Positions 2,010-43,698 are shown, numbered from the stretch's first letter. The stretch is 64,000 nucleotides of DNA from Alphaproteobacteria bacterium (GCA_044375675.1 JBILMD010000001.1:30377-94376), one strand, 5' to 3'. Made by a program: numbers and translations. Notes: generated from the letters alone by a model not told the origin.

Positions 2010-2134
2010 AATACGTTTCAGAAGGGGGATGGATGTCCGTGCGGCCTTGGGTATGCATCCATTTTTTGTGATTGCCATTTGACCTGAAGTGTGGAAACGT
2101 GAACCACCATAACAACAATTCCAAGGGATTCCGT

Positions 2135-2428: not shown

Positions 2429-2434
2429 AGCTTT

Positions 2435-5253: not shown

Positions 5254-5699
5254 GCGGACTCGGAACTCACGATTTTTTGAAAATCGCTAATATCGTGAAA
5301 GTTTTGATAAACCGAGGCAAAGCGCACGTAACCAACGGGATCGCGCTGCTTCAGATCCTTTAAAATCACTTCCCCAATGTGCCTTGATGTGACTTCGGTA
5401 TTGCCCTCTTGCTCAAGGGAGCTGCGGATTTTCAGGCTGATCTGATCCAGATCATCCAGCGTAAAGGGGCGTTTCACCAAAGCCACCATCAAAGCCTTTT
5501 TTATTTTTTCAAGAGCAAAGGGCTCTTTCCTTCCATCCGCTTTCACCACAATCAAATCGTGCATTTCCGGTCTTTCAAATGTTGTAAAACGTCCATCACA
5601 ACGGGGGCAATAACGACGACGGCGAATGGACATATTCTCATCCACCGGACGGGAATCCCTGACCTGCGTTTCCATATATCCACAATAGGGGCACTTCAT
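5250..5699 (-). CDS. nrdR: Transcriptional repressor NrdR
   Basis: Start trimmed to MKCPYCGYMETQVRDSRP. Zinc ribbon CPYC...CPRC followed by an ATP-cone. Confidence 0.9.
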   Translation of the reverse strand: MKCPYCGYMETQVRDSRPVDENMSIRRRRYCPRCDGRFTTFERPEMHDLIVVKADGRKEPFALEKIKKALMVALVKRPFTLDDLDQISLKIRSSLEQEGNTEVTSRHIGEVILKDLKQRDPVGYVRFASVYQNFHDISDFQKIVSSESA

Positions 5700-5863
5700 A
5701 AGTTTACCTAGGTATGTATTCAAGCATTCGGTTCGCCTGCCTGTAAAATGCATTATCACGCTCTGGGGCCAAGGATATACAAAAAAAATAGAATACTGCC
5801 AAGGTTGTTTTAAGGATTGTCTTATACAGTAAAGTAAAGCCGGTATAAAATTCTGGAATTTTT

Positions 5864-7507: not shown

Positions 7508-7587
7508 AAAAGCTTTTTTTGAATCGCTCTTGACGGGATCCAAATTTTTTCTGAAAATTATGTCCCATTGTCAATCCGTCAGGGATC

Positions 7588-8313
7588 ATGAACCGCCTTT
7601 ACCTTCCTTTGAACCTATCCCTTGGCCAAGACTTGGTTTTGCCTGACGCTGCCCATCACTATCTGGCCCACGTCATGCGGGCCCACACAGGCGATTCCAT
7701 AGAGGCCTTTGACGGAAAAACAGGAACATACACCGCCCATATCGCCCGCATCACCCCTAAACAGACCCTGATTCATATCGATGTCTGCACAAAACCCTTG
7801 GACACCATCCACCCCCCCATGACATTGGCCTTTGCCCTTGTTAAAAAACCAGCGCTGGAGAAGATTCTGGAAAAAGCCACCGAACTTGGTGTCACAGCCC
7901 TTCAGCCTTTGCTGACCCAACACACCGTGATGCGTCACTGGAATCAGGAACGCGCCTTGTCTCAGGTCATCGAAGCCGCTGAGCAGACCGAGCGCAACAG
8001 CCTGCCCATCCTTCATCCTGTGGCCTCTCTCGATGATTTTTTAACACGACGGCAGGGGGGCGAAGATACCCTTTTGGTAGGGGATGAACGGGGAACATCC
8101 CCCCGTATTTATGATGTTTTGATGACACTTTCCCCCCGTCCATCCTATACGCTGATGATTGGACCTGAGGGTGGATGGTCCGAGGAAGAGCTTGACAAAA
8201 TCCTGCGCAGCCCTCACTGTCACGGCATGAGCATGGGCAAAAGAATTTTACGCGCCGATACAGCAGCCATCGCAGGTCTGTCCGTGTGCCGCGCTCTTTT
8301 GGGCGATTGGTAA
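7588..8313 (+). CDS. rsmE: 16S rRNA (uracil1498-N3)-methyltransferase RsmE
   Basis: 241 aa. N-terminal PUA-like region and C-terminal SPOUT motifs (LMIGPEGGWSEEE, ILRADTA). Confidence 0.85.
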   Translation: MNRLYLPLNLSLGQDLVLPDAAHHYLAHVMRAHTGDSIEAFDGKTGTYTAHIARITPKQTLIHIDVCTKPLDTIHPPMTLAFALVKKPALEKILEKATELGVTALQPLLTQHTVMRHWNQERALSQVIEAAEQTERNSLPILHPVASLDDFLTRRQGGEDTLLVGDERGTSPRIYDVLMTLSPRPSYTLMIGPEGGWSEEELDKILRSPHCHGMSMGKRILRADTAAIAGLSVCRALLGDW

Positions 8314-8349
8314 AAAGCCTGTGACAGATTAAGCTAAGGAACCCCTATT

Positions 8350-9705
8350 ATGACGGCTATGCCCAGCATCAACACCACCGCCGTGACCGATCCTGATGAT
8401 CTGGTGTCCTATTTGGCCAGCGGGTGCAAATCACCCGAAGCGTGGTCCATTGGCACAGAGCACGAAAAATTCCCCTACCGCAGGGCCACAGGATCCCCCA
8501 TCCCCTACGAAGGTCCCGATGGTATACGGGCTTTGTTGGAAGGCCTAACCCATCGTTTTGGTTGGCAGCCCATTTTTGAGAGTGATCATGTGATTGCTCT
8601 TTCCAAGGACGGCGCGGCCATTTCTTTGGAGCCGGCGGGACAGCTTGAACTGTCTGGGGCCCCCTTAAAAACCCTGCATGAAACCTCTGATGAATTAAAC
8701 CAACACGTTCTGGAAGTTAAAGCCGTCGCTGAGGCATTGGGCGTTGATTTCCTGTGCCTGGGTTTTCATCCCACATGGCGCCGCGAAGATTGCCCGTGGA
8801 TGCCCAAGCAACGGTACAGCATCATGCGGGCCTATATGCCACAGCGGGGGTCTTTGGGATTGGACATGATGCTGCGCACCACAACCATTCAGGTCAATTT
8901 GGATTTTTCCAGCGAAGCCGATATGGTGGCCAAATTTCGCGCTGGACTTTTTTTGCAACCCTTGGCCAACGCCTTGTTTGCCAACTCTGGCCACGGCGAA
9001 GGTCGCATCAATGGATACAGCAGCTATCGCGCCCGCATTTGGCAAGATACGGATCCAGATCGGTGTGGTTTTTTAAAATTTGTTTTTGACGATACCATGG
9101 GGTTTGCCAAATACGTGGAGTATATGCTGCGCGTGCCCATGTATTTTGTCTATCGACAGGGCCGCTATATCGATGTTTCTGGACAACGCTTTGGTGATTT
9201 TATGAAAGGTTCTCTGCCTGGGTTTCTTGGAGAACATCCCACCTTAGCTGATTGGGCAGATCATTTATCCACCGCGTTTCCTGAGGTGCGGTTGAAAAAA
9301 TTTCTGGAAATGCGGGGCGCCGATGGCGGACTGCCTGGGATGATCAAGGCCCTTCCCGCATTTTGGGTGGGATTGCTTTATGATGAAACGGCACTGAAAA
9401 CCGTTTTATCATGGCTCAATGAGGTCTCGCTGGAGGACATCGAGGCCGCCCACAAAAACGGACCCCGTCAGGGTCTGATGACCCAAATGGGACGCCATAC
9501 CTTAAAAGAATGGGGCGAACGTGCCGTTGCCCTGTCGGAAGAGGGACTCAAACGCCGTGCCCGCCTGAACGGCCAACAACACAGCGAAGATGTGTATCTG
9601 TCCCCCCTGTTTGACATTCTGAAACATGGACAATCCACCAGTGAGCGCAATGTGGCCCGTTATGGGGATGATATCGCCAGCCTGATTCAGGATGCCACCC
9701 TTTAA
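8350..9705 (+). CDS. gshA: Glutamate-cysteine ligase, plant/alphaproteobacterial type (GCS2)
   Basis: 451 aa. GTEHEKF, QVNLDF and FPEVRLKKFLEMRGAD are typical of the GSH1/GCS2 family. Confidence 0.85.
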   Translation: MTAMPSINTTAVTDPDDLVSYLASGCKSPEAWSIGTEHEKFPYRRATGSPIPYEGPDGIRALLEGLTHRFGWQPIFESDHVIALSKDGAAISLEPAGQLELSGAPLKTLHETSDELNQHVLEVKAVAEALGVDFLCLGFHPTWRREDCPWMPKQRYSIMRAYMPQRGSLGLDMMLRTTTIQVNLDFSSEADMVAKFRAGLFLQPLANALFANSGHGEGRINGYSSYRARIWQDTDPDRCGFLKFVFDDTMGFAKYVEYMLRVPMYFVYRQGRYIDVSGQRFGDFMKGSLPGFLGEHPTLADWADHLSTAFPEVRLKKFLEMRGADGGLPGMIKALPAFWVGLLYDETALKTVLSWLNEVSLEDIEAAHKNGPRQGLMTQMGRHTLKEWGERAVALSEEGLKRRARLNGQQHSEDVYLSPLFDILKHGQSTSERNVARYGDDIASLIQDATL

Positions 9706-9714
9706 AAACCCCAC

Positions 9715-10725
9715 TCAACCCGCGCAGGGACATCCCGAAAACCTTTTGGGACAACGCTGTGGGGGGGAACACACCGCCCCCCCGCATGCTAGGGTTTTTT
9801 TCACCACGTCGGCCAAAGCCCTGATATGCAGGGGATGATCCCCCACGGTGTCGATGCGGATCATTTGGGAAACCCCAGCTTCCTCCGCAAGGTGACGATA
9901 TTCTATGTCCAGCTCAACCAGCGTTTCCGAGTGTTCGGAAACAAAAGCAATGGGAATCATCACAATCCCTTTTTTCTCGGCCCCAGCCCGCTCAATGGCT
10001 GATTCTGTGGAGGGCCCAATCCACGTCATGGGGCCAACGCGGCTTTGATAACAAATCTGATAATCCAAATCCGGAACATTCAGCGCGGCCACCACGGCGG
10101 CCACCGTTTGTTCCACCTGCCATTGATACGGGTCACCCTTTTTAACAATGCTTTCCGGCAGGCCGTGGGCCGAAAACAACACACGCATACCCTGAAAAGA
10201 CGTCACCTTTTCCGCGATTTTGACCACAACGGCCTGAATCCAATCAGGATGAATGGGATAGCAACACGCCATTGTTGTGGGAACAGATAACCCCTGTTTT
10301 CCCGCAATTTCCTGCCATTGCTTCACCGAAGAGGCCGTTGTCGTCGTTGAAAACTGTGGATAAAGCGGCAACAAAACAATACGATCGGGGGCGTAGGCCA
10401 TCACGTCCTGCACCACAGCCTCTGTCATGGGATGCCAATAACGCATACAGACAAAGGTTTGAAACCCCTCCCCCAACACATCCTGAAGGGCTGCGGCTTG
10501 CGCCTTTGTGTTGTCCAAAAGGGGGGATTTTCCCCCAAGATGATCATAAATTTTCGCCGCTACAGGGGCCCGCTTGCGGGAAATCAATTGGGCCAACAGA
10601 TACCGGAAAACTTTGGGAACACGGATAATGGCGGGATCATTAAAAAGATTAAACAAAAAAGGGCGGATGGCCTGAACCTGATCAGGTCCCCCAAGATTAA
10701 AAAGAACGACCGCTGTTTTCATCAT
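9715..10725 (-). CDS. hemH: Ferrochelatase with Cys-rich C-terminal extension
   Basis: 336 aa. N-terminus VLFNLGGPD; core motifs LPLYPQFS and FSAHGLP. The last 25 residues contain 5 Cys (LACGGAVCSPPQRCPKRFSGCPCAG). Confidence 0.9.
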   Translation of the reverse strand: MMKTAVVLFNLGGPDQVQAIRPFLFNLFNDPAIIRVPKVFRYLLAQLISRKRAPVAAKIYDHLGGKSPLLDNTKAQAAALQDVLGEGFQTFVCMRYWHPMTEAVVQDVMAYAPDRIVLLPLYPQFSTTTTASSVKQWQEIAGKQGLSVPTTMACCYPIHPDWIQAVVVKIAEKVTSFQGMRVLFSAHGLPESIVKKGDPYQWQVEQTVAAVVAALNVPDLDYQICYQSRVGPMTWIGPSTESAIERAGAEKKGIVMIPIAFVSEHSETLVELDIEYRHLAEEAGVSQMIRIDTVGDHPLHIRALADVVKKTLACGGAVCSPPQRCPKRFSGCPCAG

Positions 10726-10785
10726 GATCCTTTCAAGACATTCTGATGGTTTTTAAAGCAAAAAAAGCCCGTAAGCCATAGTCTT

Positions 10786-11217
10786 TTACCCCAAACCAAA
10801 ACATTCATGCCTGAGCCTGCGGGTTTGATCTGTGTTAAAATCAAAGGTCAGGGCCTGCCGCACAGGGGGCAAAAAGGGCGCAATGCGCTGCGGCCATTCG
10901 ATGCAACAGGGATGCAACATCATGGCATCCACCAGCCCTAGGGCATAGATCTCTTCGGGGCTGCCCAAACGATAGCAATCCACATGCCACAGGGGACCCT
11001 GCGGCAAATCATAAACCTGAATCAGGCCATAAGTGGGGCTGATCACAGGACCCTGCCAACCCAGCGCTTTCAGATAAAACCGCATAAACGTTGTTTTTCC
11101 CACGCCCAAGGGGCCCTCCAACGTCATCACAGAGGGCAACAGATGACGATCCGTCGCAAGGGCATGGGCCAGCGCCGCCGTGTCCGCTTCGTTTTTTAGG
11201 GTATGGGTGGTGATCAT
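10786..11217 (-). CDS. tsaE: tRNA t6A37 biosynthesis ATPase TsaE
   Basis: Start trimmed to MITTHTL. Walker A GPLGVGKTTFMR and the conserved HVDCYRL motif. Confidence 0.85.
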   Translation of the reverse strand: MITTHTLKNEADTAALAHALATDRHLLPSVMTLEGPLGVGKTTFMRFYLKALGWQGPVISPTYGLIQVYDLPQGPLWHVDCYRLGSPEEIYALGLVDAMMLHPCCIEWPQRIAPFLPPVRQALTFDFNTDQTRRLRHECFGLG

Positions 11218-16235: not shown

Positions 16236-16312
16236 GGGGGGAAACCGTTGCAATCCCACGAATATTGCCGTATTTTTCCATTTTGAATGCCACGAAACAA
16301 AGAAAGCCCCGC

Positions 16313-18424
16313 ATGATGTTAAAACGATACGCCATGGCCATTGTGTTGACCCTGTTTTCTGTTATCCCCAGTGTGGCGGGGGATTCCAGTGATTTTGAAG
16401 CAACCAAAAACTTGGCGGAACAGGGGGATGCGGCTGCGCAAGTTGGTTTAGGAAACATGTACAGATACGGTTGGGGCGTATCAAAAAATGCTACAGAAGC
16501 CGTCAAATGGTATACCAAAGCTGCGGAACAGGGGGAGGAAAATGCACAATTTAATTTGGGCCTTATGTATCGCTACGGTCAGGACGTACCCCAAAATTAT
16601 GAACAGGCCATCAAATGGTACACCAAAGCCGCGGAAAAGGGGTATGCGGCTGCGCAAGTTGGTTTAGGAGACATGTACAAATACGGTTGGGACGACAGAG
16701 AAGACAAAAAATACGGTTGGGTCACGAGGGACAATGATAAAAAAAATGATAAAGAGGCTATGAAATGGTACACCAAAGCAGCAGAACAAGGGGATTCATC
16801 GGCCCAAAATAGTTTAGGAGACATGTACAAATACGGTTGGGTCACTTGGGACAATGATAAAGAAAATGATAAAGAGGCTATGAAGTGGTACAGCAAAGCG
16901 GCAGTACAAGGGCATTCATCGGCCCAAAATAGTTTAGGAGACATGTATCGACACGGTGGTCGGGGCGTACGCCAAGATTATTACGAGGCCGTCAGGTGGT
17001 ACACCAAAGCTGCGGAACAGGGGTATGCAGGGGCGCAAATTAGTTTAGGATCTATGTACTACGAGGGGTTAGGAATACCAAAAAATGATCCAGAGGCCTT
17101 TAAATGGTATACCAAAGCTGCGGAACAGGGGGAGGGAAAGGCACAATTTTATTTAGGGCTCATGTACCGCAACGGTCAGGGCGTGCCCCAAAATTATGAA
17201 CAGGCCATCATATGGTACACCAAAGCCGCGGAACAGGGGTATGCGGCTGCGCAAGTTGGTTTAAGAGAGTTGCACGCATACGGTCGGGCCAATTGGAACG
17301 TACCGACAAATGATAGAAAAAATGGTAAAGAGGCTATTAAATGGTCCACCAAAGCGCCAGAACAAGGGGATTCATCGGACCAAAATAGTTTAGGAGAAAT
17401 GTACCAATACAATAAAAACGAGCCCGAAGGAAGTTATGAACAGGCCGTCGAATGGTATACCAAAGCTGCGGAACAGGGGTATGCGGCTGCGCAAGTTAGT
17501 TTAGGAGACATGTACAAATACGGTTGGGGCGTATCAAAAAATGCTACAGAAGCCGTCAAATGGTATACCAAAGCTGCGGAACAGGGGGATGGAAAGGCAC
17601 AATTTTATTTAGGGCGCATGTATCGCTACGGTGAGGGCATACCCAAAAATTATGAACAGGCCATCAAATGGTACACCAAAGCCGCGGAAAAGGGGTATGC
17701 GGTTGCGCAAGTTGGTTTAGGAGACATGTACAAATACGGTTGGGACGACAAATATGGTTGGGCCAATTGGGACATACCAGCAAATGATAAAAGAAATTAT
17801 AAAGAGGCTATGAAATGGTACACCAAAGCGGCAGAACAAGGGGATTCATCGGCCCAATATAGTTTAGGATACATGTACAGATCCGGTAGTCAGGACGTGC
17901 AAAGAAATTATAGACAGGCCGTCAAATGGTATACCAAAGCTGCGGAACAAGGCAATTCTTTTGCGCAAGGTGCTTTGGGTGGTATGTATGCATCGGGTCG
18001 CGGTGTGTCAAAAAATGACAAAGAATCCCTCAAATGGTACACCAAAGCGGCTGAACAAGGGCATGTAGAATCACAATATACTCTGGGAGAGGAGTATTTC
18101 TACGGTAAGGACGTACCCCAAAATTATGAGGAATCCGTCAGGTGGTACACCAAAGCCGCCCTACAAGGGCATGTGGAGGCTCAATCTATTTTAGGTTTCA
18201 TGCATGAAAAAGGTAACGGCGTACCGCAAAGTGATGAACAGGCTTATATTTGGTACAGTGTAAGTTTAGTTACCGCCCAATCCGATGAACGAGGAGGTGA
18301 CAAAGAACGACTGGATTTGGCGGCCGAAAAACTCACCCCAGAACAATTGGCCGCCGCCCGACAACGCGCCGCGGAATTGGAAAAACAAATTCAGGCCAAC
18401 GCGAAATATCCATACGTTTATTGA
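16313..18424 (+). CDS. Secreted Sel1-like repeat (SLR) protein, about 16-17 repeats
   Basis: Start trimmed to MMLKRYAMAIVLTLFSVIPSVAG (signal peptide). Iterated KWYTKAAEQG-x3-AQ-x2-LG-x-MY-x-G units run throughout. Confidence 0.9.
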   Translation: MMLKRYAMAIVLTLFSVIPSVAGDSSDFEATKNLAEQGDAAAQVGLGNMYRYGWGVSKNATEAVKWYTKAAEQGEENAQFNLGLMYRYGQDVPQNYEQAIKWYTKAAEKGYAAAQVGLGDMYKYGWDDREDKKYGWVTRDNDKKNDKEAMKWYTKAAEQGDSSAQNSLGDMYKYGWVTWDNDKENDKEAMKWYSKAAVQGHSSAQNSLGDMYRHGGRGVRQDYYEAVRWYTKAAEQGYAGAQISLGSMYYEGLGIPKNDPEAFKWYTKAAEQGEGKAQFYLGLMYRNGQGVPQNYEQAIIWYTKAAEQGYAAAQVGLRELHAYGRANWNVPTNDRKNGKEAIKWSTKAPEQGDSSDQNSLGEMYQYNKNEPEGSYEQAVEWYTKAAEQGYAAAQVSLGDMYKYGWGVSKNATEAVKWYTKAAEQGDGKAQFYLGRMYRYGEGIPKNYEQAIKWYTKAAEKGYAVAQVGLGDMYKYGWDDKYGWANWDIPANDKRNYKEAMKWYTKAAEQGDSSAQYSLGYMYRSGSQDVQRNYRQAVKWYTKAAEQGNSFAQGALGGMYASGRGVSKNDKESLKWYTKAAEQGHVESQYTLGEEYFYGKDVPQNYEESVRWYTKAALQGHVEAQSILGFMHEKGNGVPQSDEQAYIWYSVSLVTAQSDERGGDKERLDLAAEKLTPEQLAAARQRAAELEKQIQANAKYPYVY
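16441..17750 (+). repeat. Intragenic segmental duplication within the Sel1 gene
   Basis: 16441-16536 vs 17494-17589 differ at 3 of 96 nt. About 16591-16697 vs 17643-17749 are nearly identical. The offset is 1053 nt, which is in frame. Confidence 0.85.
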
Positions 18425-22472: not shown

Positions 22473-22802
22473 ATGCCCATGATCAAACGTCCTGTTTATC
22501 CCATTCATCCAGGGGAAATTTTGGGTGACGAGCTGGAGGTTTTAAAGATGAGCCCAGCGGAGGCCTCCCGCGCTTTGGGGGTGCCGCCCAATCGGTTATA
22601 TCAGATTTTATCGGGAAAACGGGCCATCACGGCGGATACCGCCCTGCGGTTGCAGCAGTGGTTGGGGGTAGAGGCGGCCTTTTGGCTGAACCTGCAAAAA
22701 CGTTACGAACTGGATCAGGCCGAAGAATCCTGCGGCGATGCCATCCGCGCCACCGTCCGCCCCAGAGATCCCGCCCTGCACGCCCAAGGGGTTTCGGTTT
22801 AG
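22473..22802 (+). CDS. higA: HigA-family antitoxin/XRE HTH protein (no adjacent toxin)
   Basis: HPGEILGDELEVLKMSPAEASRALGVPPNRLYQILSGKRAITADTALRLQQWLGVEAAFWLNLQKRYEL is the canonical HigA/VapI motif. Only 57 nt separate it from gltX, so there is no room for higB. Confidence 0.8.
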   Translation: MPMIKRPVYPIHPGEILGDELEVLKMSPAEASRALGVPPNRLYQILSGKRAITADTALRLQQWLGVEAAFWLNLQKRYELDQAEESCGDAIRATVRPRDPALHAQGVSV

Positions 22803-22824
22803 GGCTGCCCTTCCTTTACCCCCA

Positions 22825-23124
22825 TCACCCCCGTAAAAACCCCAGATCATAAACTTGGGGGATGAGTTTTTCGGTGAGGGATCGATAGGCGGCCTCAAAA
22901 AGAGAAAAATCCACGGGCGGGGCGGTGTCGGCTTTGCCCCGTTCCTTTAGCGCATTTCGGATTTGATACCATCCTGCGTCGGGGCGATTCAGTTTATAGG
23001 TTTCGCGCACGCCGTGGGGTGGTATTTCCGTAAAATAGGCCCGCCACAGGTCCCGTCCTGCATCCAAAACAGCCATGGCCTCATTCAGGGCATATTGCCA
23101 TAAAGGTGTTTGGTTTGGGTGCAT
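22825..23124 (-). CDS. Hypothetical protein (99 aa), possibly a fragment
   Basis: ORF with normal composition but no motif I can assign. Sits at the edge of the low-GC islet. Confidence 0.35.
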   Translation of the reverse strand: MHPNQTPLWQYALNEAMAVLDAGRDLWRAYFTEIPPHGVRETYKLNRPDAGWYQIRNALKERGKADTAPPVDFSLFEAAYRSLTEKLIPQVYDLGFLRG

Positions 23125-23175
23125 GGGGTAAATGAGGGTTTGGGGATGGGGGGATGGGGGTTAGATTTTGATGGT

Positions 23176-23607
23176 TTACATTTTGCAATCATCGCCTTGG
23201 TATTGATATTTTTCAATATAACCCAAATTGTTGGTCGTTATTAAAATGTTGCAATAGTTATAATAATTATAATACGTCGTTTGATTGCCATAGGTTGTTG
23301 ACATACCAGAATAAGTTGAAGAATAATCTGACGCTATCCCCCATCCTTGAGTCTTCATATTTCCAGTGTGATACGTTTCTTGAGTTGTTGGTAGCGTTAT
23401 AGGAATTGAACCAGATTGCCAAAATTTATACTCCAAGACCTGACCACCAGAGGATAGTGGATAAGACGATGCGGGCGGCCCCCAAGAACTTACCAAATTA
23501 TCAACATGTTGTCCCTGCCATGTGGTGAGCATGTTCCTAAAATTGGCCTCGGATGCACAACCAGAAAGTAGCAGCAACGAAACAACTAAAAATTTCTTGA
23601 GGGGCAT
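23176..23607 (-). CDS. Lipoprotein, Tyr/Thr/Asn-rich
   Basis: Signal peptide plus lipobox MPLKKFLVVSLLLLSGC. Visibly AT-rich DNA. Directly abuts the upstream lipoprotein pseudogene. Confidence 0.65.
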   Translation of the reverse strand: MPLKKFLVVSLLLLSGCASEANFRNMLTTWQGQHVDNLVSSWGPPASSYPLSSGGQVLEYKFWQSGSIPITLPTTQETYHTGNMKTQGWGIASDYSSTYSGMSTTYGNQTTYYNYYNYCNILITTNNLGYIEKYQYQGDDCKM

Positions 23608-24043
23608 TCAAGAAGATACTTTCAGGGTTTTTATATCTTTGACCACATCATTTTTATCATAGGTGATTGTCGCAGTGTATGTATCCCCTGCCGATGCTTC
23701 GATGGGTGTTCCTGCAATTTCCCAAAGACCAAATGTCACCAACGTTAAAGCAGCGTTCCCAACAGCGCGACCAGGGCTTGGTTCATTTCCAATTTCATAT
23801 TGATAAACATCGATTCTATCTCCATTCGCTAGTGTTGTTGTTTTGATGGGGGCACCCAAGTGAACTTCTATTTCTGACCGTTTTTTGTTCGTGTTCTGAC
23901 CGTTTTTTGTTCGTGGACACCGCCCCTAAATCTGGAGGATTCGACCCCCTAGCTGCCATAACAGCAGAGCAAGACGAAAGAAACACTGATAACACTGCCA
24001 CGCAAACTACTTTACGTAGCTCGTTTCCCTTTATGATTGCCAT
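23608..24043 (-). pseudogene. Lipoprotein gene disrupted by a 22-bp tandem duplication
   Basis: Two ORFs (24043-23816 and 23859-23608) lie in different frames. Removing one copy of the 22-bp repeat fuses them into a 137-aa lipoprotein: MAIIKGNELRKVVCVAVLSVFLSSC...STNKKRSEIEVHLGAPIKTTTLANGDRIDVYQYE... Confidence 0.8.
23872..23915 (-). repeat. Perfect 22-bp tandem duplication (ttctgaccgttttttgttcgtg x2)
   Basis: Copies at 23872-23893 and 23894-23915 are identical, read directly from the sequence. Confidence 0.95.
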
Positions 24044-24128
24044 TGAATAACCCTTTTGGTCACGACTTGTGATGATTTGTGGACTATAGCCTACGGACTT
24101 TCGGTTGGCAATAGCCAACAATGGGCAG

Positions 24129-24338
24129 ATGACACCATTAACCCTTATCGGCCAACGCATTGCCCAAAAACGGAAAGACAAAGGGCTTAGTCAAGAAGAC
24201 CTTGCGGGGTTGTGTGACATGGACCGCAGCTATCTTTCCGAAATTGAAAATGGCCATAAAAACTTTTCGGTTATGGTTTTGATGACCATCGCACAGGCTT
24301 TGGGAATACGGTCAGGGGATTTGCTGGATAAGGAATGA
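24129..24338 (+). CDS. XRE-family HTH transcriptional regulator
   Basis: LIGQRIAQKRKDKGLSQEDLAGLCDMDRSYLSEIENGHKNFSVMVLMTIAQALG is a classic Cro/C1-type HTH. Divergent from the lipoprotein pair, with an intergenic gap of about 85 bp. Confidence 0.8.
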   Translation: MTPLTLIGQRIAQKRKDKGLSQEDLAGLCDMDRSYLSEIENGHKNFSVMVLMTIAQALGIRSGDLLDKE

Positions 24339-24372
24339 GAGGGGAAGGGCCCCCAAGGTCCTTTTGGTGGCC

Positions 24373-24654
24373 TTACCCCGTAGTGACAGACACCGTGACC
24401 ATGACCAAAAAGGGCAACGATGTGCTCCTCTGTTGTGAGCGTTTTTTTTCTTTGCGATAGTCATGCACATAATGCAGCAGCTGGGTGAACATTTCATAGC
24501 TAGAGGTGGGCTTGAGCTTAGCCTCGAACCAAATTTCATCCGTCAAAATATCCACCAGACCCTTGCGGTATTTTTTTAGGCCTAGAGCTTTGATATAAAT
24601 ATCTTTGACGTCCTCTTCGGTTGTAACGGTTTTTAGATTCTGATACAAATTCAT
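24373..24654 (-). CDS. Hypothetical protein with possible PD-(D/E)xK motif, probably truncated
   Basis: MNLYQNLKTVTTEEDVKDIYIKALGL...VDILTDEIWFEAK has a D-x(n)-E-x-K arrangement. The sequence becomes implausible after an A8 run (T8 on the plus strand, 24442-24449). Confidence 0.3.
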   Translation of the reverse strand: MNLYQNLKTVTTEEDVKDIYIKALGLKKYRKGLVDILTDEIWFEAKLKPTSSYEMFTQLLHYVHDYRKEKKRSQQRSTSLPFLVMVTVSVTTG

Positions 24655-24816
24655 GCAGGGCAACCTTCCTTAAAAAAACCCCTGTATTATGGCCGCGAAG
24701 GCAGGGAGGTGTAAAGGGTGGATAGTGCTGTTGTTTCTCCCCCCCTTGACCATAACGCCGGAATCCGTCATGGTAAGTCGTTTTTAAAACAACCCTTTTT
24801 TCCATCCGATGATGTT

Positions 24817-27536: not shown

Positions 27537-28874
27537 TCAGGCTTTCAAAAACCGCTCTAACCAGTGAATGTCATAGTGGCCAGTTTGGATATCGGGTTGA
27601 TTCAACAGCCGTTGGTGCAAAGGAATGGTGGTTTGAATCCCCTCAATCACATATTCATCCAGGGCGCGGCGGCTGCGGGCCAAACAATCGGCCCGCGTGT
27701 TGCCATGAATCACCAGCTTTGACACCAAGCTGTCATAAAAGGGCGGCACCCGATACCCATCATAAATCGCCGCATCAATGCGCACGCCAGGGCCCCCAGG
27801 GGCATGATAACGGGTAATCAATCCGGGACTGGGCACAAAGGTTTCCGGATGTTCCGCATTGATCCGATATTCAATAGCGTGCCCATGAAAACGCACCTGA
27901 TCTTGGGTCACAGACAGGGGCAGGCCCGCCGCCACGCACAGCTGTTCTTTGACCAGATCAATACCCGTGATGGCTTCTGTGACGCAGTGTTCCACCTGCA
28001 GGCGGGTGTTCATTTCGATAAAATAAAATTGCCCCTGCGCATACAAAAACTCAAACGTTCCGGCGCTGTAATAGCCAATGTCCTTGGCCGCTTTCACAGC
28101 AATGGCCCCAATATGGGCACGCTCGGCATCGGTTAACGCGGGGGAGGGTGCTTCCTCCAAAACCTTTTGATGACGCCGCTGCAGGGAACAGTCACGTTCC
28201 CCCAAATGAATCACGTTGCCGTGTTGATCCCCCAGCAATTGAATTTCAATGTGACGGGGCTGCAGCAAATACTTTTCCATGTAAACATCGGGGTTGCCAA
28301 AGTGGGTTTGGGCCTCGATCTGGGCCAGATCGAACAGCTCGGCCACGTCTTCGGCCCTTTCGGCAATTTTCATGCCCTTGCCTCCGCCCCCGCCTGCGGC
28401 CTTCATCAAAACGGGAAAACCGATCTCTTTGGCTAAGGCTGTGGCTTCCTGACCATTTTTCAAAACCCCCTCGGATCCGGGGACCACGGGAACGCCTGCG
28501 CGGATCATGGCGTTTTTGGCGCTGACCTTATCCCCCATCACTTGGATATGTTCTGGCGATGGACCGATGAAGGTTAACCCATGCTCCGCCACCATTTGGG
28601 CAAAGGTGGCATTTTCCGCCATAAAACCAATGCCCGGGTGAATGGCCTGCGCCCCCGTGATATGGGCGGCGGAGAGGATGGAGGCAATGTTCAAATAGCT
28701 GTCTTTGGACGCAGGGGGGCCAATGCACACGCTTTCATCGGCCAGCATCACCGCCATGGATTCCGAATCCGCCGTGGAATGCACCACCACCGTTTTGATG
28801 CCCATTTCATGACAGGCCCGATGAATCCGCAAAGCCACTTCCCCGCGGTTGGCAATCAATACTTTTTCAAACAT
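27537..28874 (-). CDS. accC: Acetyl-CoA carboxylase biotin carboxylase subunit
   Basis: 445 aa. MFEKVLIANRGEVALRIHRACHEMGI; ATP-grasp motifs GGGGKGM and EMNTRLQVEH. Confidence 0.95.
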   Translation of the reverse strand: MFEKVLIANRGEVALRIHRACHEMGIKTVVVHSTADSESMAVMLADESVCIGPPASKDSYLNIASILSAAHITGAQAIHPGIGFMAENATFAQMVAEHGLTFIGPSPEHIQVMGDKVSAKNAMIRAGVPVVPGSEGVLKNGQEATALAKEIGFPVLMKAAGGGGGKGMKIAERAEDVAELFDLAQIEAQTHFGNPDVYMEKYLLQPRHIEIQLLGDQHGNVIHLGERDCSLQRRHQKVLEEAPSPALTDAERAHIGAIAVKAAKDIGYYSAGTFEFLYAQGQFYFIEMNTRLQVEHCVTEAITGIDLVKEQLCVAAGLPLSVTQDQVRFHGHAIEYRINAEHPETFVPSPGLITRYHAPGGPGVRIDAAIYDGYRVPPFYDSLVSKLVIHGNTRADCLARSRRALDEYVIEGIQTTIPLHQRLLNQPDIQTGHYDIHWLERFLKA

Positions 28875-29030
28875 AATCGCGCTTCCTTATAATCCCTTAG
28901 GACAGATCAAACCCCCAAGAAAGACGGTTCGTTGCCACTGTGGCCTGTCTGAAAAAGAAATCAAGAAAAATCCCAAAAAAATCCTAAGAACATGACACGT
29001 GGCGGGGATTTTTTCTGGTTAAATGGGGGG

Positions 29031-30617
29031 TTAGCGTCCATCGTTATTATTATTAGTTGGCCCTTGCATTGCCTTTATACTTTCAAATAATTCTCTCACA
29101 TGATAGTCGTAAATGTGACGGGAAGGCAAAGGTACACGATATGGACTTGCCTTCGACGCATCCCCAGCTGGGGCATATTTTGATAAATGGTTTTTTATCG
29201 CCTTGGCTTCTTCCATTTGTGCCTGATGGAAAGCTTCTAGGTAACCTGTTGGCAACAGGTTATTTAGATTGGCATTCAAAAAGGAAATTTTAGAAACATC
29301 GATGCCAAATTTCTTCTCAATATCACGACACATGTCAGCCCATGTGACAGCGCCCAAATTATAAGATTCATAAGGGTATTCGAAAAAGTTTGGGATCTTC
29401 ACGGTCAAAGGGGGCAAGACAGCAGTTTGAATACTACGGAATTGCTTTGGATGAGTAGGATCAAAATTTGGATCATCAGGATCAAAGTCTGGAACTTGTG
29501 GCCCGATTGGTATGATAAGCCCATTGGCTTTGGCAACCTCCGAAAATCCATTGAGTTGTTCAGAAACTTCCGTAATAAAAGCCTTGTGAGCCTTTTCAGG
29601 GTATCTCTGGTTTTCGGGCTTATTCATATGCTTTTGCCATGCGGTATAAATAGCTTTCCATAATTTTAGCGTGTGTTTTTCCCATTTTAAACTCAGATCC
29701 GCAGAGTGGAAAGAACCGTCTGGATTCAGAATATCGAGCGTAATCTGCTGATATCTATCATGATTTTTTTCTATCGGGGGCGCTTTTTTTTTGTATGGAT
29801 TTTCTGCCTGTATCATCTCATCCATATAAGTTGTTAACCCGTCTGGCGTATGAGAAGAGCAAAGCTTAAAAGCCTTATCTAATCCTTTTATAAACAAAGT
29901 CGGGATTCCATCTGCCCATGTCGTCGTAAGAAAAAAATCTGTATCTCTAAAGAATGTTTTGATGTGCTCTTCCGCTTCTTCGATTGCTTGTGCACGTTCC
30001 TGAGTTTGCCCAGTCCTTTGAAAGGTTGGCATATTTAAGTCTTGAATTTTCTCTTTTGGAAAAGTGGTCATCAGGTAACAGAATAAAAGAAAAATGAACC
30101 CCTCCCGTGGACCTCCAAAAAACTGAATCAGTTCGCCCCCTCTTAGTTTTGAAGAATTGATTCCATAAACACCCTCCGTTTCAGTAATATCCTCCTCGTT
30201 TTCATGATTTCCTGAACGAATGGCCAAAATTTGCTTGGCTGTATCAGGATCAATCAACTGTCGTGCCGATTTTTTAAAAGAATCCTCAGCAATACTCGCC
30301 GTTACAGTTTCAACACCTGGGGGAACGATTTTGCAATGACCGACAATTTTCCTTTCGTTCCCTTCGCCCTCAAACAGGACCAAGTATAATGTCCCCTTTT
30401 CGTCTTTAATACCCCTAGCGTAACCATCCTGCCTTATATAATGTCCAACCCACTCACAAAGTGCTAAATTGTCGTGATTTCTGGCAATCGTTTGTATTTG
30501 AAAATAAAAAGGATCGCTGATTTTTAAATCTTGAACAACCTCGGGAGAAAAAACAACTAGGCTAAGTTTAGGCTTAGCCCGTGCTTGTCCTCCCTCCGCT
30601 TGGGGGCTGTTCGCCAT
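29031..30617 (-). CDS. Hypothetical protein (528 aa), orphan, AT-rich island
   Basis: Long uninterrupted ORF in visibly AT-rich DNA. No signal peptide, TM segment or catalytic motif recognised. Last gene of a co-oriented luxR/188-aa/528-aa string. Confidence 0.6.
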   Translation of the reverse strand: MANSPQAEGGQARAKPKLSLVVFSPEVVQDLKISDPFYFQIQTIARNHDNLALCEWVGHYIRQDGYARGIKDEKGTLYLVLFEGEGNERKIVGHCKIVPPGVETVTASIAEDSFKKSARQLIDPDTAKQILAIRSGNHENEEDITETEGVYGINSSKLRGGELIQFFGGPREGFIFLLFCYLMTTFPKEKIQDLNMPTFQRTGQTQERAQAIEEAEEHIKTFFRDTDFFLTTTWADGIPTLFIKGLDKAFKLCSSHTPDGLTTYMDEMIQAENPYKKKAPPIEKNHDRYQQITLDILNPDGSFHSADLSLKWEKHTLKLWKAIYTAWQKHMNKPENQRYPEKAHKAFITEVSEQLNGFSEVAKANGLIIPIGPQVPDFDPDDPNFDPTHPKQFRSIQTAVLPPLTVKIPNFFEYPYESYNLGAVTWADMCRDIEKKFGIDVSKISFLNANLNNLLPTGYLEAFHQAQMEEAKAIKNHLSKYAPAGDASKASPYRVPLPSRHIYDYHVRELFESIKAMQGPTNNNNDGR

Positions 30618-30691
30618 AAAAAACTCCTAAAATGCACCTTTTCCATGCGATTGTATGTTATGAAAAATAACTAAAATAATAATTAATCAAA

Positions 30692-31258
30692 TCATGGGGT
30701 TATTAACGATAGGCGAAGGATCTCTTGGGATTGTTCCAGTGTCTGCCAGGGATAGCTGTGCAACAGGGCCCCAACATCCCCCAACGTGTCACGAACACGG
30801 GTTTCGTTGGATGGATTTTGTATCAACGATAACAGTTGGGCTGACTGATACAGGGCTTTTAAAATCGCCTCTACATACGGTGTCAGATCAAATCCATTTT
30901 CATCAAAAACCATTTTTTGGTGAAAATGGGGGGAAAGGAGGACAGCCTCTAAAGCAAACGCGCTGAGAGCAACATCAAAATGTTTTCCCGCAAGGTCAAC
31001 GAGCACATCATCAATCCTATAAAGAATCTTTGCATCCTGTTGACGAACCGTCCTTTCATATACAGGATCATAGTCACAGGAATCAACATCCAACTTTGGA
31101 AGCTCTAATTTTTCAATAGGAGCATTAAACAAACAAAAACCATAGACCAAAGAGCCAAACCCTTTATGGTTACTCTTTTTTTTAAAAGAGCTTTGGTACC
31201 AGCGGCCCTTTTGATTGTCACAATCTTTCTTTGATAAAGAGGAAAAAGCATATTTCAT
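30692..31258 (-). CDS. Hypothetical protein (188 aa), orphan, AT-rich island
   Basis: ORF between the LuxR-family gene and the 528-aa ORF on the same strand. No recognisable motif, and it does not match the conserved LuxI residues. Confidence 0.55.
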   Translation of the reverse strand: MKYAFSSLSKKDCDNQKGRWYQSSFKKKSNHKGFGSLVYGFCLFNAPIEKLELPKLDVDSCDYDPVYERTVRQQDAKILYRIDDVLVDLAGKHFDVALSAFALEAVLLSPHFHQKMVFDENGFDLTPYVEAILKALYQSAQLLSLIQNPSNETRVRDTLGDVGALLHSYPWQTLEQSQEILRLSLITP

Positions 31259-31411
31259 AGTGTTTGCCTTTCATGACGAATTGATTACGTCTGTATGAAG
31301 CCTGAACAGGGCGAATCTGTAAAATTTTTTTCTGTCTATTGACACACATGCCAAAACTGATACAATGATATGTTTTGTAACATAAAAAACATAATGCGCT
31401 CTTTAATCCCT

Positions 31412-32152
31412 TTAATCAAGAGAAAGGGCGATGTAGTGGTGTTTTATGGCTTTGATTGTGGCGGATGTTCGACTGTAACAATCCAGCTTTTCTTTGGCAC
31501 TGTTAATGATATTTGTGATTGTTGATTTGGAAAGGCCCCCTAAAATCAGGGCAATTTCATAGTCCGTCTTACCCTTGGCAACCCACGATAGACACTCCTG
31601 CTCCCTTGGTGTCAGGGGATTAAAATCTTGTCTGGCATGCTGCAGGTGCAATTGTTGCACCAAAGAATGGTATGTATGGGCCAGAATTTTAAAGTCCATT
31701 TCCTTTTCCAAAAAAAATCTATAATGGTCATTGCATTTTTGTTCGGGAATCAGGGTTAGCAATGCTGAATTGGTTGATTTTCCAAAAAGAAAAATGGGGA
31801 TTGTGATGCCTTCATCCAAATGAAAATCTCTGGCATCTTTGAGAAACCGATTCTGCACTGGGGATAATTCATCTTTTTTTAAAAAATCCGACCAGAGATA
31901 GGAATCTCTGTCATGGGTATACACCCGTAAAACGGGGTCAATGTTTTGGCATTGGTTTTTAGAATAGTGGATACCCCATTCCTCAGGGTAGTTATTGTAA
32001 CAAAAGGGACGAATGTTTTGTTGATCTGGAAAATGAACATAAGCCCATCGAGCAATGCCATTTTTTTTTAAAACCTCTGACAAAAGCCTATTGAGATCCG
32101 AAATCGACGATACCAAAAAGCATTCAGACAAAAAAAGTCCATTTAAATCCAT
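31412..32152 (-). CDS. LuxR-family quorum-sensing regulator (autoinducer-binding domain plus LuxR HTH)
   Basis: W59, Y63, D72, P73, W87 and G115 have exactly the spacing of TraR W57/Y61/D70/P71/W85/G113. E184-x3-L188-x5-G194 lies in the HTH (LTPREQECLSWVAKGKTDYEIA). Confidence 0.85.
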   Translation of the reverse strand: MDLNGLFLSECFLVSSISDLNRLLSEVLKKNGIARWAYVHFPDQQNIRPFCYNNYPEEWGIHYSKNQCQNIDPVLRVYTHDRDSYLWSDFLKKDELSPVQNRFLKDARDFHLDEGITIPIFLFGKSTNSALLTLIPEQKCNDHYRFFLEKEMDFKILAHTYHSLVQQLHLQHARQDFNPLTPREQECLSWVAKGKTDYEIALILGGLSKSTITNIINSAKEKLDCYSRTSATIKAIKHHYIALSLD

Positions 32153-32347
32153 AAATTAACGCATTTTTTCTTTCTGTGTTTGATTTTTTTTAAGAAAGAT
32201 TAACGATGCAGTCGTTTTTCTGATGGAACCTTTTTGCTTGGGAACATCTACATGCATTCATAGGATATGTCTGTAAAAAAATGACTAACGCCCACATCTT
32301 GTTCATGTTTTCTTGCTTAAAGGACACACCCAAACATCGCTCCTGCA

Positions 32348-33721
32348 TCACTCCTGCCACCACCCATAATAGGCCCCCTTCACCCGTTCAAAATGATCTT
32401 TGGGGTTATATTTTTTTGTTTTTTTGGAAATTTTTTCGATATTCAATTCCCCCATGGCGGCTAAGAGGGTGTATTCAGCGATCAGTTTGCGCCCCTTGGT
32501 GGTGATCAAACGCCGCTGCGCCCCCAGCAAGTCCTGCTCTGCATCCAGAAAATCCAACGTGCTGCGAAACCCCATATCCAATTCTTCTCGCATGCCTTCG
32601 GCGGCTTTTTGTGCGGATATGACCTCCAGCTGGGTGGTTTCCAAATCCGACGTGGCGGTTTGCAGATCACTCCACGCCAGCGTGACATCACGGATAACGT
32701 CACGATAAACACCATCTTTTTCATAGGACGCCCGCTGTCGTTCTTTTTTTGCCTGACGAGTCCACGAGGACACCATCCCCCCGTCGTAAAGGGGAATTTT
32801 TAAAACCAGTTTGGTTTCCGCCCCTTCTCTGCGCTGATCATCAAAGGATGGGTCTTCCTGCCGGTAAATCTGGGATTGTATCGACAATTCGGGACGATAG
32901 CCGCTGCTGATGCGATCCACGTCGGCGTCTTTGGCGTCTATGGTGTGATAGGCCGCCCGCAACAGGGGGTTTTTGGCAAGGGCACGATCCGTTGCCGCCG
33001 CTAAGGTTTCGGGGGTTTGGGGGGCTTTAGACAATCCCTGTAACGATCCTGGCAGCATTCCCACCATGGCCATGAAATCCGCCCGTCGCGCGGCCAGCGT
33101 CCGCTCTGACTGACGCAGTTCCGTGCGGGCCCGTGCCCAGCGGGATTTGGCCAAAGAAACATCCGTCATGGTCAATTCACCTGCCTGAAAACGGGCCTCT
33201 GTGATGGTGACGTTGTCCTCTAGGGTCTTCTGATAACCCCGCTGAAAGGTCACAATCTCTTGCTCCACAACCACGCCAACATAGGCTTTGATGGTCTCCA
33301 GCAAAACGTCCTGCGTTTGATGTCGCAAATCTTCCCTGCCCAGCGCAATTTTGGCCATTGCCAAATCCATCTCGGCCATCGTTTTTCCCCCGCGATACAG
33401 GGGCTGTTCATGAATCACACCCAGGGTATAGGGATCACGCGCGTCAACCTGATCTTGATTTCCGTCATTCCCAAAACGTTTGTCCACCTTTTCGTCCACA
33501 TAGCCCTTGTCCCCAAAGACCTTCACGCTGGGGCGAAAGCCTGAGAGGGCTTTGTTATAGTCCTCATCGAGGGCCTCAACTTGCAAACGGGCGGCTTTGA
33601 TTTGGGGATGGGTCTGATAGGCAAGGCTGCAGGCTTCCTCCAAGGTCACGGGCAACGTTTCCGCAGCCGTGGCCCAAGGAGCCCACCATAAAAAGGCACA
33701 AAACCAGACTCTGGTTTTCAC
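32348..33721 (-). CDS. tolC: TolC-family outer membrane channel
   Basis: 457 aa. Signal peptide MKTRVWFCAFLWWAPWATAAE. Duplicated OEP-type repeats with coiled-coil periodicity. Confidence 0.8.
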   Translation of the reverse strand: MKTRVWFCAFLWWAPWATAAETLPVTLEEACSLAYQTHPQIKAARLQVEALDEDYNKALSGFRPSVKVFGDKGYVDEKVDKRFGNDGNQDQVDARDPYTLGVIHEQPLYRGGKTMAEMDLAMAKIALGREDLRHQTQDVLLETIKAYVGVVVEQEIVTFQRGYQKTLEDNVTITEARFQAGELTMTDVSLAKSRWARARTELRQSERTLAARRADFMAMVGMLPGSLQGLSKAPQTPETLAAATDRALAKNPLLRAAYHTIDAKDADVDRISSGYRPELSIQSQIYRQEDPSFDDQRREGAETKLVLKIPLYDGGMVSSWTRQAKKERQRASYEKDGVYRDVIRDVTLAWSDLQTATSDLETTQLEVISAQKAAEGMREELDMGFRSTLDFLDAEQDLLGAQRRLITTKGRKLIAEYTLLAAMGELNIEKISKKTKKYNPKDHFERVKGAYYGWWQE

Positions 33722-42897: not shown

Positions 42898-43698
42898 ATG
42901 CGTCATATCGTGGCTTTTTTCCGTTTAACAGGGATCCTTTTTATCACGGGGTTTGCCATCGGGATGTTTGTTCTGGCGATTGTTTTTCGCCTAAGCACTC
43001 ATAAAATTCCCCTGTACTGGCACAGGGGAATTTTGGCCATTTCTGGCCTGCGGGTTCATGTGATCGGAACGCCCAGTTCCATAACCCCAACACTGTTTGC
43101 CAGCAATCATAGTTCATACTGGGATATTGTCGTTTTGGGGTCCCTGATTGAGGGATCCTTCATCGCCAAAAAGGAAATCGCCAGCTGGCCTGTCGTCAGT
43201 TTTCTGGCCAAGCTGCAAAAAACCTATTTTGTGGACCGAAAGCCCCGTCATGCCCAAGAACAGCTGGATGATCTGGCATTGTTTTTACAAGAAAAACGAA
43301 ACTTAATTTTGTTCCCCGAGGGCACCAGCAACGATGGCAATCGGGTCTATCCGTTTAAACCCACCCTGTTTCGCATGGCCGAACACGATCAGTTGGTCAT
43401 TCAACCCGTGACCGTGGTGTATTCTCTGCTGGATGGTATGCCCTTGCACAGGGGCCTTCGCCCCTTGACAGCCTGGTATGGGGATATGGACCTTTTTTCC
43501 CATTTGTGGACCGTTTTGGGTATGGGAACGCTGCAGGTGGATGTTGTTTTCCATGACGTGATGGACCCATCGGCCTTTACCTCTCGCAAAGAGATGGCAA
43601 AAAAAGCCCATATGATGATTAAGAGGGGCCTAGAGCAACGTTACCGCAACGCCTTTATGGACCATGAACCCAAAACCCTGCGTCGCCGTCATGCCTGA
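42898..43698 (+). CDS. plsC: 1-acyl-sn-glycerol-3-phosphate acyltransferase family (LPLAT)
   Basis: N-terminal TM segment. NHSSYWD (HX4D) and FPEGTSNDG motifs. Confidence 0.8.
   Translation: MRHIVAFFRLTGILFITGFAIGMFVLAIVFRLSTHKIPLYWHRGILAISGLRVHVIGTPSSITPTLFASNHSSYWDIVVLGSLIEGSFIAKKEIASWPVVSFLAKLQKTYFVDRKPRHAQEQLDDLALFLQEKRNLILFPEGTSNDGNRVYPFKPTLFRMAEHDQLVIQPVTVVYSLLDGMPLHRGLRPLTAWYGDMDLFSHLWTVLGMGTLQVDVVFHDVMDPSAFTSRKEMAKKAHMMIKRGLEQRYRNAFMDHEPKTLRRRHA

Follow-up and report, generated by a model that had tools for sequence, protein, structure and literature searches.

We describe a three-gene module built around a LuxR-family receptor in a 64,000-nt stretch of DNA from an assembly labelled Alphaproteobacteria bacterium (GCA_044375675.1, JBILMD010000001.1:30377-94376). 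The whole of this stretch is referred to below as the window, and positions are counted from its first nucleotide. A composition profile showed that the interval from accC to tolC is an AT-rich island (28990-32340), with a G+C content (GC) of 0.36-0.43 over approximately 29000-32300, compared with 0.52-0.58 on either side, just as an earlier, sequence-only reading of this DNA had described it. Calling of open reading frames (ORFs) recovered the three genes that this reading had placed in the island, at the same coordinates and each on the minus strand. They are luxR (31412-32152), encoding a receptor/transcription factor of 246 amino acids (aa) of the acyl-homoserine lactone (AHL) type; ORF188 (30692-31258), encoding a conserved, lineage-specific protein of 188 aa; and ORF528 (29031-30617), encoding a hypervariable, multi-domain protein of 528 aa that is, from comparison of its alleles and from an AlphaFold 2 (AF2) model, a candidate non-canonical LuxI-like enzyme. 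The flanking genes, identified by Pfam scan, are accC (27537-28874) and tolC/OEP (32348-33721), both also on the minus strand, and the order on that strand is tolC/OEP, luxR, ORF188, ORF528, accC.

The LuxR protein scored well above the Pfam cut-offs for both of its domains, i.e., Autoind_bind (PF03472; residues 18-163, E = 1.5e-20, 73.6 bits with a cut-off of 23) and the GerE helix-turn-helix (HTH) domain (PF00196; E = 2e-10, 40.6 bits with a cut-off of 23.5). The six ligand-pocket residues to which the sequence-only reading had drawn attention (W59, Y63, D72, P73, W87 and G115) are all present and could be matched to their TraR/RhlR equivalents in solved structures, while the E-x3-L-x5-G motif that it had noted in the HTH was found as EQECLSWVAKG from residue 184 (E184, L188 and G194). 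LuxR is a full-length receptor of the AHL type, for which ligand binding and activation are predicted from these sequence features. The closest NCBIfam models were those of TraR, SdiA and related proteins, and plasmid-borne LuxR proteins were no more than 31% identical to it, marking it as a distant member of the family. Among relatives LuxR is 87-99% identical, with a ratio of nonsynonymous to synonymous substitution (dN/dS) of 0.06-0.26. Across seven LuxR variants there were 47 variable positions, 37 of them within the ligand domain and including positions 60, 61 and 64, which neighbor W59 and Y63. The hallmark residues themselves were unchanged in all seven.

The three genes were found together, in the order luxR (246 aa)-ORF188-ORF528, in every relative with visible neighboring genes, spanning nine allele types. 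The possibility, raised in the sequence-only reading, that the three never co-occur in relatives is firmly rejected by this conservation of the triad. In related loci L001-L010, L017 and L109 the triad is flanked by tolC and accC, and the intergenic distances are identical. In L012, the sole occurrence at a different chromosomal site, it adjoins nadA rather than accC, and the GC of the module is 0.37 versus 0.54 in the flank. The remotest members of the ORF528 family, which are short (336 aa), occur in L107, L108 and ENA contig ERZ1426826, again as part of a triad whose LuxR and ORF188 are, respectively, 93% and 83% identical to those in the window. Only one family member was found outside a triad: P0018, N-terminally truncated and 437 aa long, on a contig of 2844 bp (NCBI GCA_041443025.1), where it follows a DDE transposase fragment and neither ORF188 nor luxR can be seen within 1 kb. 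Thus, luxR, ORF188 and ORF528 have been inherited, and have moved, as one unit. The earlier suggestion that these genes were horizontally acquired holds for the composition of the island, which is foreign (GC is also low, at 0.36-0.38, in the related modules L012, L107 and L108), but the island is a stable, syntenic resident of its lineage.

A scan of GTDB genomes with AccC identified three metagenome-assembled genomes (MAGs) labelled Alphaproteobacteria bacterium (isolates RE-18aug17-8, RE-18aug17-138 and samp_4445_concoct_1529) with 97-99% identity. The next most similar AccC proteins, from Azospirillum, Niveispirillum, Kordiimonas and others, were only 67-69% identical, and this large gap indicates that the host belongs to an isolated, uncultured alphaproteobacterial lineage. 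That lineage is known from MAGs and metagenome contigs only, and the sample names suggest that it comes from fresh water.

The most unusual feature of the module is the extreme allelic hypervariability of ORF528, which is only 24-90% identical in strains that have 99% identity in the flanking genes. When the window was compared with L001, L005 and L008, TolC and AccC were more than 99% identical, LuxR 97-99% and ORF188 95-99%, against 47-90% for ORF528. ORF528 of the window was 36% identical to that of L017, with AccC at 99%, and 34% identical to that of L012, with ORF188 at 98.9%. Nucleotide identity drops from 99-100% to 55-85% precisely across the body of ORF528 (approximately 29000-30600), and close alleles retain 99-100% identity only in the first 20 or so and the last 5 codons. 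One allele, P0006, occurred both where the flanks diverge from those of the window by about 1% and where they do so by about 6%, indicating that alleles have been exchanged between backgrounds. The alleles are also mosaic, P0003 being window-like, P0006-like, window-like again and then P0004-like along its length. By the Nei-Gojobori method, dN/dS was 0.74-1.13 for the closer pairs of ORF528 alleles, versus mostly 0.02-0.26 for neighboring genes (0.3-0.8 for ORF188 in a few pairs of low divergence). Values of 0.5-1.4 were obtained alike in all three regions of ORF528 defined below, and synonymous divergence (dS) in ORF528 was 5-15 times that of the flanks. In literature searches we found no description of an ORF528-like family, or of hypervariable genes in LuxR/LuxI-type loci.

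Two contigs of GTDB MAGs (L015, CANGYP010000071.1, and L016, JBJTVN010000195.1) stop 225-386 nt from accC, where ORF528 should begin. That two of the three GTDB MAG contigs with this accC stop there suggests that assemblies break at ORF528, and that surveys of MAGs probably under-detect the gene.

A dN/dS close to 1 is also what might be expected of a gene that is decaying neutrally, in an island that is itself a remnant. We regard this as highly improbable. All ORF528 alleles are open and in frame (336-573 codons) at 20-45% nucleotide divergence, and their indels are in frame, whereas when random substitution was simulated the frame remained open in only 3 of 3000 cases with 10% of sites changed, and in 0 of 3000 with 20%. 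Positions in motifs are also conserved across the family, and a confident AF2 model (see below) implies coevolving, foldable sequences. That the frame is open in every allele despite this divergence indicates that ORF528 is functional and diversifying, rather than decaying, i.e., that it is a hypervariable, recombining gene kept open by selection. The age and mosaic structure of the alleles, together with a dN/dS near 1, suggest that antagonists or social interactions impose diversifying or balancing selection on the gene, and give no sign that a signal and its receptor have co-diversified.

The sequence-only reading had been unable to assign either ORF188 or ORF528 to a family, and that result stands: neither gave a credible match in Pfam, NCBIfam, PADLOC, PHROGs or PDB sequences (with PADLOC there were 0 matches for ORF188, ORF528 and five relatives). 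Among 5.8 billion proteins, homologues of ORF528 formed eight clusters and those of ORF188 five, with one NCBI-labelled MAG of "Alphaproteobacteria bacterium" among the latter. When 1.84 billion representatives were searched in full with a HMMER profile, the ORF528 family gave 12 matches. A word-indexed homologue search with an expanded ORF528 alignment returned close alleles only, a genome scan with the ORF528 alignment returned none, and a metagenome scan with ORF188 returned one locus. With the profile of the ORF528 family there were no matches among PDB sequences, and a fold search of BFVD gave no meaningful match. Members of the family range from 336 to 573 aa in length, and an alignment of 16 sequences (A2) contained few invariant residues, i.e., F223, G372, P403 and R494.

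With nine close alleles as input, AlphaFold gave an unusable model of ORF528 (predicted local distance difference test, pLDDT, of 41). With the 16 sequences of A2, which include distant members, AF2 returned a model with a pLDDT of 76 and a predicted template-modelling score (pTM) of 0.75. Three regions can be delineated, all encoded on the minus strand. An N-terminal α/β domain (residues 18-235; 29913-30566), indicated by the model, Foldseek and hhalign, encloses a putative LuxI-signature block (residues 34-100; 30318-30518) defined by a reproducible hhalign register. It is followed by a helical insertion (residues 236-354; 29556-29912), delimited by A2 and modelled as helices over 240-352, which is wholly missing from the short (336-338 aa) members of the family, and by a C-terminal α/β region (residues 355-528; 29031-29555) that contains the invariants G372, P403 and R494. 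No fold could be assigned to the C-terminal 60% of the protein. Acyl carrier protein was matched by residues 387-447 in phmmer (E = 0.058), but this was rejected, because the position of the phosphopantetheine serine is occupied by T, V or M across the family and the modelled fold is not a four-helix bundle.

It had been suggested in the sequence-only reading, as an impression, that the first 190 or so residues of ORF528 might fit a GNAT/LuxI fold. When the whole ORF528 model was compared by Foldseek with 350,542 PDB chains, ranks 1-4 were all occupied by BjaI (5w8c, 5w8a, 5w8g and 5w8e), a LuxI-family AHL synthase that is dependent on coenzyme A (CoA). These matches were weak (E = 0.065-0.11, probability 0.82-0.87, template-modelling score (TM) 0.40 on the target). 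Below them came TmcA, NAT10, MYST and p300 acetyltransferases, EsaI and FeeM, and about 20 of the best 50 matches were GNAT, MYST, LuxI or FeeM structures. Taken alone, the Foldseek result is suggestive.

A second comparison was made with a LuxI profile (A3), an alignment of ten annotated LuxI synthases from plasmids with the invariants R25, F29, W35, E44, D46, D49, R69/R70, E100/E101, S103 and R103/R104. Aligning the ORF528 family with A3 using hhalign gave P values of 0.028 for the whole protein, 0.015 for the N-terminal domain and 0.005 for that domain minus the loop at 121-155. The true score was 23.05, compared with means of 12.9-15.9 for block-permuted and 11.5-11.8 for reversed profiles, and it was matched by just 0-3 of 150 block permutations. 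The register pairs R46, W56, D72, Y78, K96 and P99 of ORF528 with R25, W35, D49, Y55, R69 and P72 of LuxI, the residue being the same in W56, D72, Y78 and P99, and over residues 34-100 it was recovered when the family was split into close alleles and distant members and each half was aligned separately. In P0015, one of the distant members, the sequence RNYRFLKRLGW stands against R--VF--RLGW of LuxI. Counterparts of LuxI R25 and F29 are present in some members of the family only. The order of strands and helices in the ORF528 model also matches the aligned blocks of A3. Outside the N-terminal domain there was no signal with the LuxI profile, either in the helical insertion (P = 0.66) or in the C-terminal region (P = 0.21 for residues 353-445 and 0.44 for residues 446-528), and with these additions ORF528 and its relatives (336-573 aa) exceed the size of the single-domain LuxI proteins, which are about 190-250 aa. 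A register of G366...L-G372-P with A-G158-W...L-G165 of LuxI was rejected, as the C-terminal part alone gave a P value of 0.21 and appending it produced no gain in score. We conclude that ORF528 probably contains a LuxI-derived or LuxI-like GNAT domain. The impression of a GNAT/LuxI fold thus gains weak-to-moderate support from Foldseek and hhalign, but by sequence criteria ORF528 is not a member of the LuxI family.

All of these similarity statistics are marginal (E = 0.065, TM = 0.40, hhalign probability less than 8%), the model rests on 16 sequences only, and with so few invariants, and 60% of the protein without an assignable fold, the resemblance to LuxI and GNAT proteins could be spurious. 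ORF528 would then be a fast-evolving, lineage-specific protein of another kind that is merely linked to luxR, for example one involved in kin discrimination or incompatibility, or an unrecognized component of a defence or toxin system with ORF188 as its partner. We consider this unlikely, since two methodologically independent tests agree on a single family that was predicted from context, and permutation nulls seldom attain the observed hhalign score. In addition, PADLOC and PHROGs were empty, and ORF188 is conserved, whereas an immunity partner would be expected to co-diversify.

Identity of ORF188 is 83-99.5% across all modules, including those in which the gene downstream is only 28-34% identical. 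It is flanked in the window and in all relatives by luxR and by the synthase-like gene, with which it is in tandem. Likewise, rsaM genes most commonly have luxR on one side and the synthase gene, in tandem, on the other, and the RsaM family (PF16245) has a conserved quartet of tryptophans (PMC10710839). ORF188 resembles the middle gene of the luxI-rsaM-luxR arrangement in being small, non-DNA-binding in appearance, and upstream of and in tandem with a synthase-like gene. It differs in giving no match to PF16245 in Pfam and none in the PDB, in having only two tryptophans (W20 and W171) rather than a quartet, and in being apparently co-transcribed rather than an independent unit. The 74-nt spacer between ORF188 and ORF528 (30618-30691, minus strand) is conserved in length and sequence in all loci, and a search for a terminator within it found none, so that the two genes are probably co-transcribed. 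A terminator-like hairpin followed by a run of T residues does occur inside the first 20 or so codons of ORF528 (30559-30580, minus strand); counts of such hairpins were not above chance.

Directly upstream of ORF188, a 73-nt segment (31259-31331, minus strand) is identical in the window and in L012, unlike the distal half of the luxR-ORF188 spacer, which is unrelated in L012. The conserved 73 nt likely marks a promoter or operator. The best dyad in the spacer, ATGTTTTTTATGTTACAAAACAT, was rejected: it was reached by 21 of 300 shuffles and sits in the non-conserved half. A near-consensus sigma-70 promoter is present in the spacer on the plus strand at 31339-31366 (TTGACA-16-TACAAT with an extended TG, 11 of 12 matches). 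It reads antisense into the 3' end of luxR, and counts of promoter-like sites in the region were not above those expected from shuffling. Between the window (30692-31258) and L012 (997-1563), ORF188 together with its proximal promoter is 98.9-100% identical, with a dS of 0.04, as against a dS of 0.36 for the neighboring luxR and more than 1 for ORF528. The near-identity of this segment between diverged neighbors indicates recent recombinational transfer, or a sweep, of that segment only.

Our preferred interpretation, to which we assign a probability of about 40%, is that the island carries a self-contained LuxR module with a non-canonical, LuxI-derived, multi-domain partner enzyme. The N-terminal 170-235 or so residues of ORF528 appear to form a very divergent LuxI-like acyltransferase domain of the GNAT superfamily, onto which the helical insertion and the C-terminal α/β region would have been added. 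The enzyme might then make, or modify, an acyl-type ligand of the adjacent LuxR. ORF188, in its RsaM-like slot, might act as an accessory or regulatory partner, and LuxR might control ORF188-ORF528 via the 73-nt upstream segment, generating the usual positive feedback. Diversifying or balancing selection on ORF528 would be superimposed on this LuxR/LuxI-like module. The constant co-occurrence of the three genes favors a module with a non-canonical synthase over a solo receptor with unrelated cargo.

Several results weigh against a self-contained module of this type. No PDB match in Foldseek had an E value below 0.001, the TM of the best was only 0.40 on the target, and hhalign probabilities were low (2-7%). 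The second LuxI motif (E-x-S/T-R-F, aligned with E-L-I-Q-F) was recovered with the full family only and with neither half; the register at E101 was unstable, and this part of the alignment is tentative. By sequence ORF528 is not a canonical LuxI: PF00765 (Autoind_synth) gave no match at E ≤ 1 for ORF528 and nine relatives, LuxI residues E44 and D46 have no counterpart, and R103/R104 is replaced by Q, E44, D46 and R104 being residues reported as essential in LuxI. A dN/dS of about 1 in the N-terminal domain is unusual for an enzyme. A lux-box search of the luxR-ORF188 spacer found no inverted repeat with a 6-nt seed and no CTG-N10-CAG. Moreover, L001 and L002 have identical ORF528 genes and LuxR proteins that differ at 13 positions, while the window and L001 have only two differences in LuxR and ORF528 proteins that are only 53% identical, so that the LuxR type tracks the genomic background and not the ORF528 allele. 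This independence argues against signal-receptor pherotypes in the style of agr or com, and the hypothesis that synthase and receptor have co-diversified is unsupported by the pattern of LuxR variants. Finally, a canonical luxI could lie elsewhere in the genome, the data comprising 64 kb together with short MAG contigs.

According to the sequence-only reading, no LuxI-, LuxM- or HdtS-like synthase was recognizable in the window. Our Pfam scan covered nearly all other ORFs of the window of at least 90 aa, leaving out Mfd, GltX, two IscS-like genes, IscR and UvrC, together with genes that carry Pfam annotations in related loci, namely those for GT4, M3 peptidase, UDP-glucose dehydrogenase, NTP_transferase, CyaY, LeuA-like, FliR, NTP_transf_2 and a 172-aa ORF. 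In the ORFs scanned there was no match to PF00765 or LuxM, in agreement with that claim, but a PlsC-type acyltransferase (PF01553, E = 2.2e-21), a member of the superfamily to which HdtS belongs, is encoded beside miaB (42898-43698, plus strand). It is probably a housekeeping lysophospholipid acyltransferase. Provided that ORF528 is left out of the synthases, luxR lacks an adjacent cognate luxI, as LuxR solos do, PF00765 being absent from the island and from the scanned ORFs.

In the main rival interpretation, which is quite possible, if doubtful, LuxR would be such a solo, through which AHLs made from another locus or by neighboring species switch on a polymorphic ORF188-ORF528 operon. ORF528 would in that case be no synthase but a GNAT-like acyltransferase or another effector, with phage, grazers or competitors as its adversaries in an arms race. 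In favor of this, no canonical LuxI was found among the scanned ORFs of the 64 kb, ORF528 lacks E44, D46 and R104 and is 336-573 aa long, and a conserved LuxR does not follow the ORF528 alleles. Conflict genes typically show mosaic alleles, raised dS and a gene-wide dN/dS such as the 0.5-1.4 found here, and the Foldseek matches also include generic GNAT enzymes. On the other hand, the top structural matches were LuxI-type synthases rather than ordinary GNATs, the register fits the N-terminal signature specific to LuxI, and ORF528 occupies the position usually taken by luxI. The triad was kept even at the other locus (L012), no signal peptide or transmembrane segment was seen in ORF528 by reading the sequence, without a predictor, and there was no match to a defence system in PADLOC.

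Comparison with established systems helps to place the module that we favor. With the canonical pairs TraR/TraI, BjaR/BjaI and RhlR/RhlI it shares a receptor with Autoind_bind and GerE domains and the hallmark residues, a partner gene downstream, and, in the N-terminal domain of ORF528, top structural matches in the LuxI family and a W, D, Y, R/K-x-x-P register. It differs from them in that ORF528 is not seen by PF00765, is 1.6-2.7 times longer, lacks E44, D46 and R104 and, within one species-level lineage, is hypervariable, and in that LuxR is so distant from plasmid-borne LuxR proteins (≤31% identity). In Photorhabdus, the LuxR solos PluR and PauR are linked to synthases of the ketosynthase type rather than LuxI, i.e., PpyS, which makes pyrones, and DarABC, which makes dialkylresorcinols, and their receptor pockets are altered. 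The module resembles these systems in linking a LuxR-family receptor to a candidate non-canonical signal enzyme; in our case, however, the pocket is fully of the AHL type and the partner appears LuxI-derived. FeeM (PDB 2g0b) provides a precedent for a LuxI-like GNAT fold without LuxI sequence motifs, although as a match to ORF528 it was much weaker than BjaI (Foldseek rank 48, E = 4.9, TM = 0.34 on the target), it has a single domain and, to our knowledge, it is not linked to a LuxR. In the staphylococcal agr and Bacillus comQXP systems, which use peptide signals and have no LuxR-type receptors, the receptor and the synthase or processing gene vary together. These systems are like the module in having a hypervariable gene, in their case one for signal production, between conserved flanks, with old, recombining alleles shared across backgrounds, and unlike it in that the LuxR described here does not co-vary with ORF528.

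The remainder of the window is ordinary chromosome, with genes for GapR, FliR, MCP and SecDF, Isc genes, and many toxin-antitoxin pairs. A segment of about 26.8 kb (7526-34345) that includes the luxR island, about 2 kb short of one end, has the reverse orientation in L001, L003, L004 and L008: positions 1-6253 of L001 correspond to 1272-7525 of the window on the plus strand, and 6275-10864 to 34345-29772 on the minus strand. The arrangement in the window is common to L002, L005 and L006, and there is no long inverted repeat at the inversion junctions. A Sel1 protein of 719 aa, with at least 10 repeats (E = 1e-144) and an apparent N-terminal signal sequence, is encoded at 16265-18424 (plus strand), surrounded by dense toxin-antitoxin pairs (PIN/Phd, HigB/HTH and nucleotidyltransferase pairs) and a Rick_17kDa-like lipoprotein. 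Approximately 2 kb of small ORFs, several of them lipoprotein-like, lie near a HigB/HTH pair at about 22800-24740 and are missing from L001, representing strain-specific indel variation.

On our preferred reading, the module departs from the usual LuxR/LuxI organization in that its candidate LuxI-like partner is invisible to Pfam and hypervariable within a lineage; the case for signal synthesis rests on marginal statistics. A stronger proposal, which we rate as distinctly unlikely, is that the ORF528 alleles are functionally different LuxI-derived synthases, specifying an allelic series of acyl signals, or a quorum-controlled acylated product, under frequency-dependent selection. If it were true, the agr/com pherotype or kin-discrimination polymorphisms would have an equivalent of the LuxR/LuxI type in this locus, and ORF528 would represent a previously unrecognized, multi-domain branch of the LuxI/GNAT superfamily. 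Many LuxR genes are called solos for want of a nearby PF00765 synthase. Should ORF528 prove to be a working LuxI-derived enzyme, partners that are invisible to profiles may exist for some of these solos, and the chemistry of LuxR ligands may be wider than is now recognized. The locus provides a concrete case for asking what diversifies the components of quorum sensing in natural freshwater populations.

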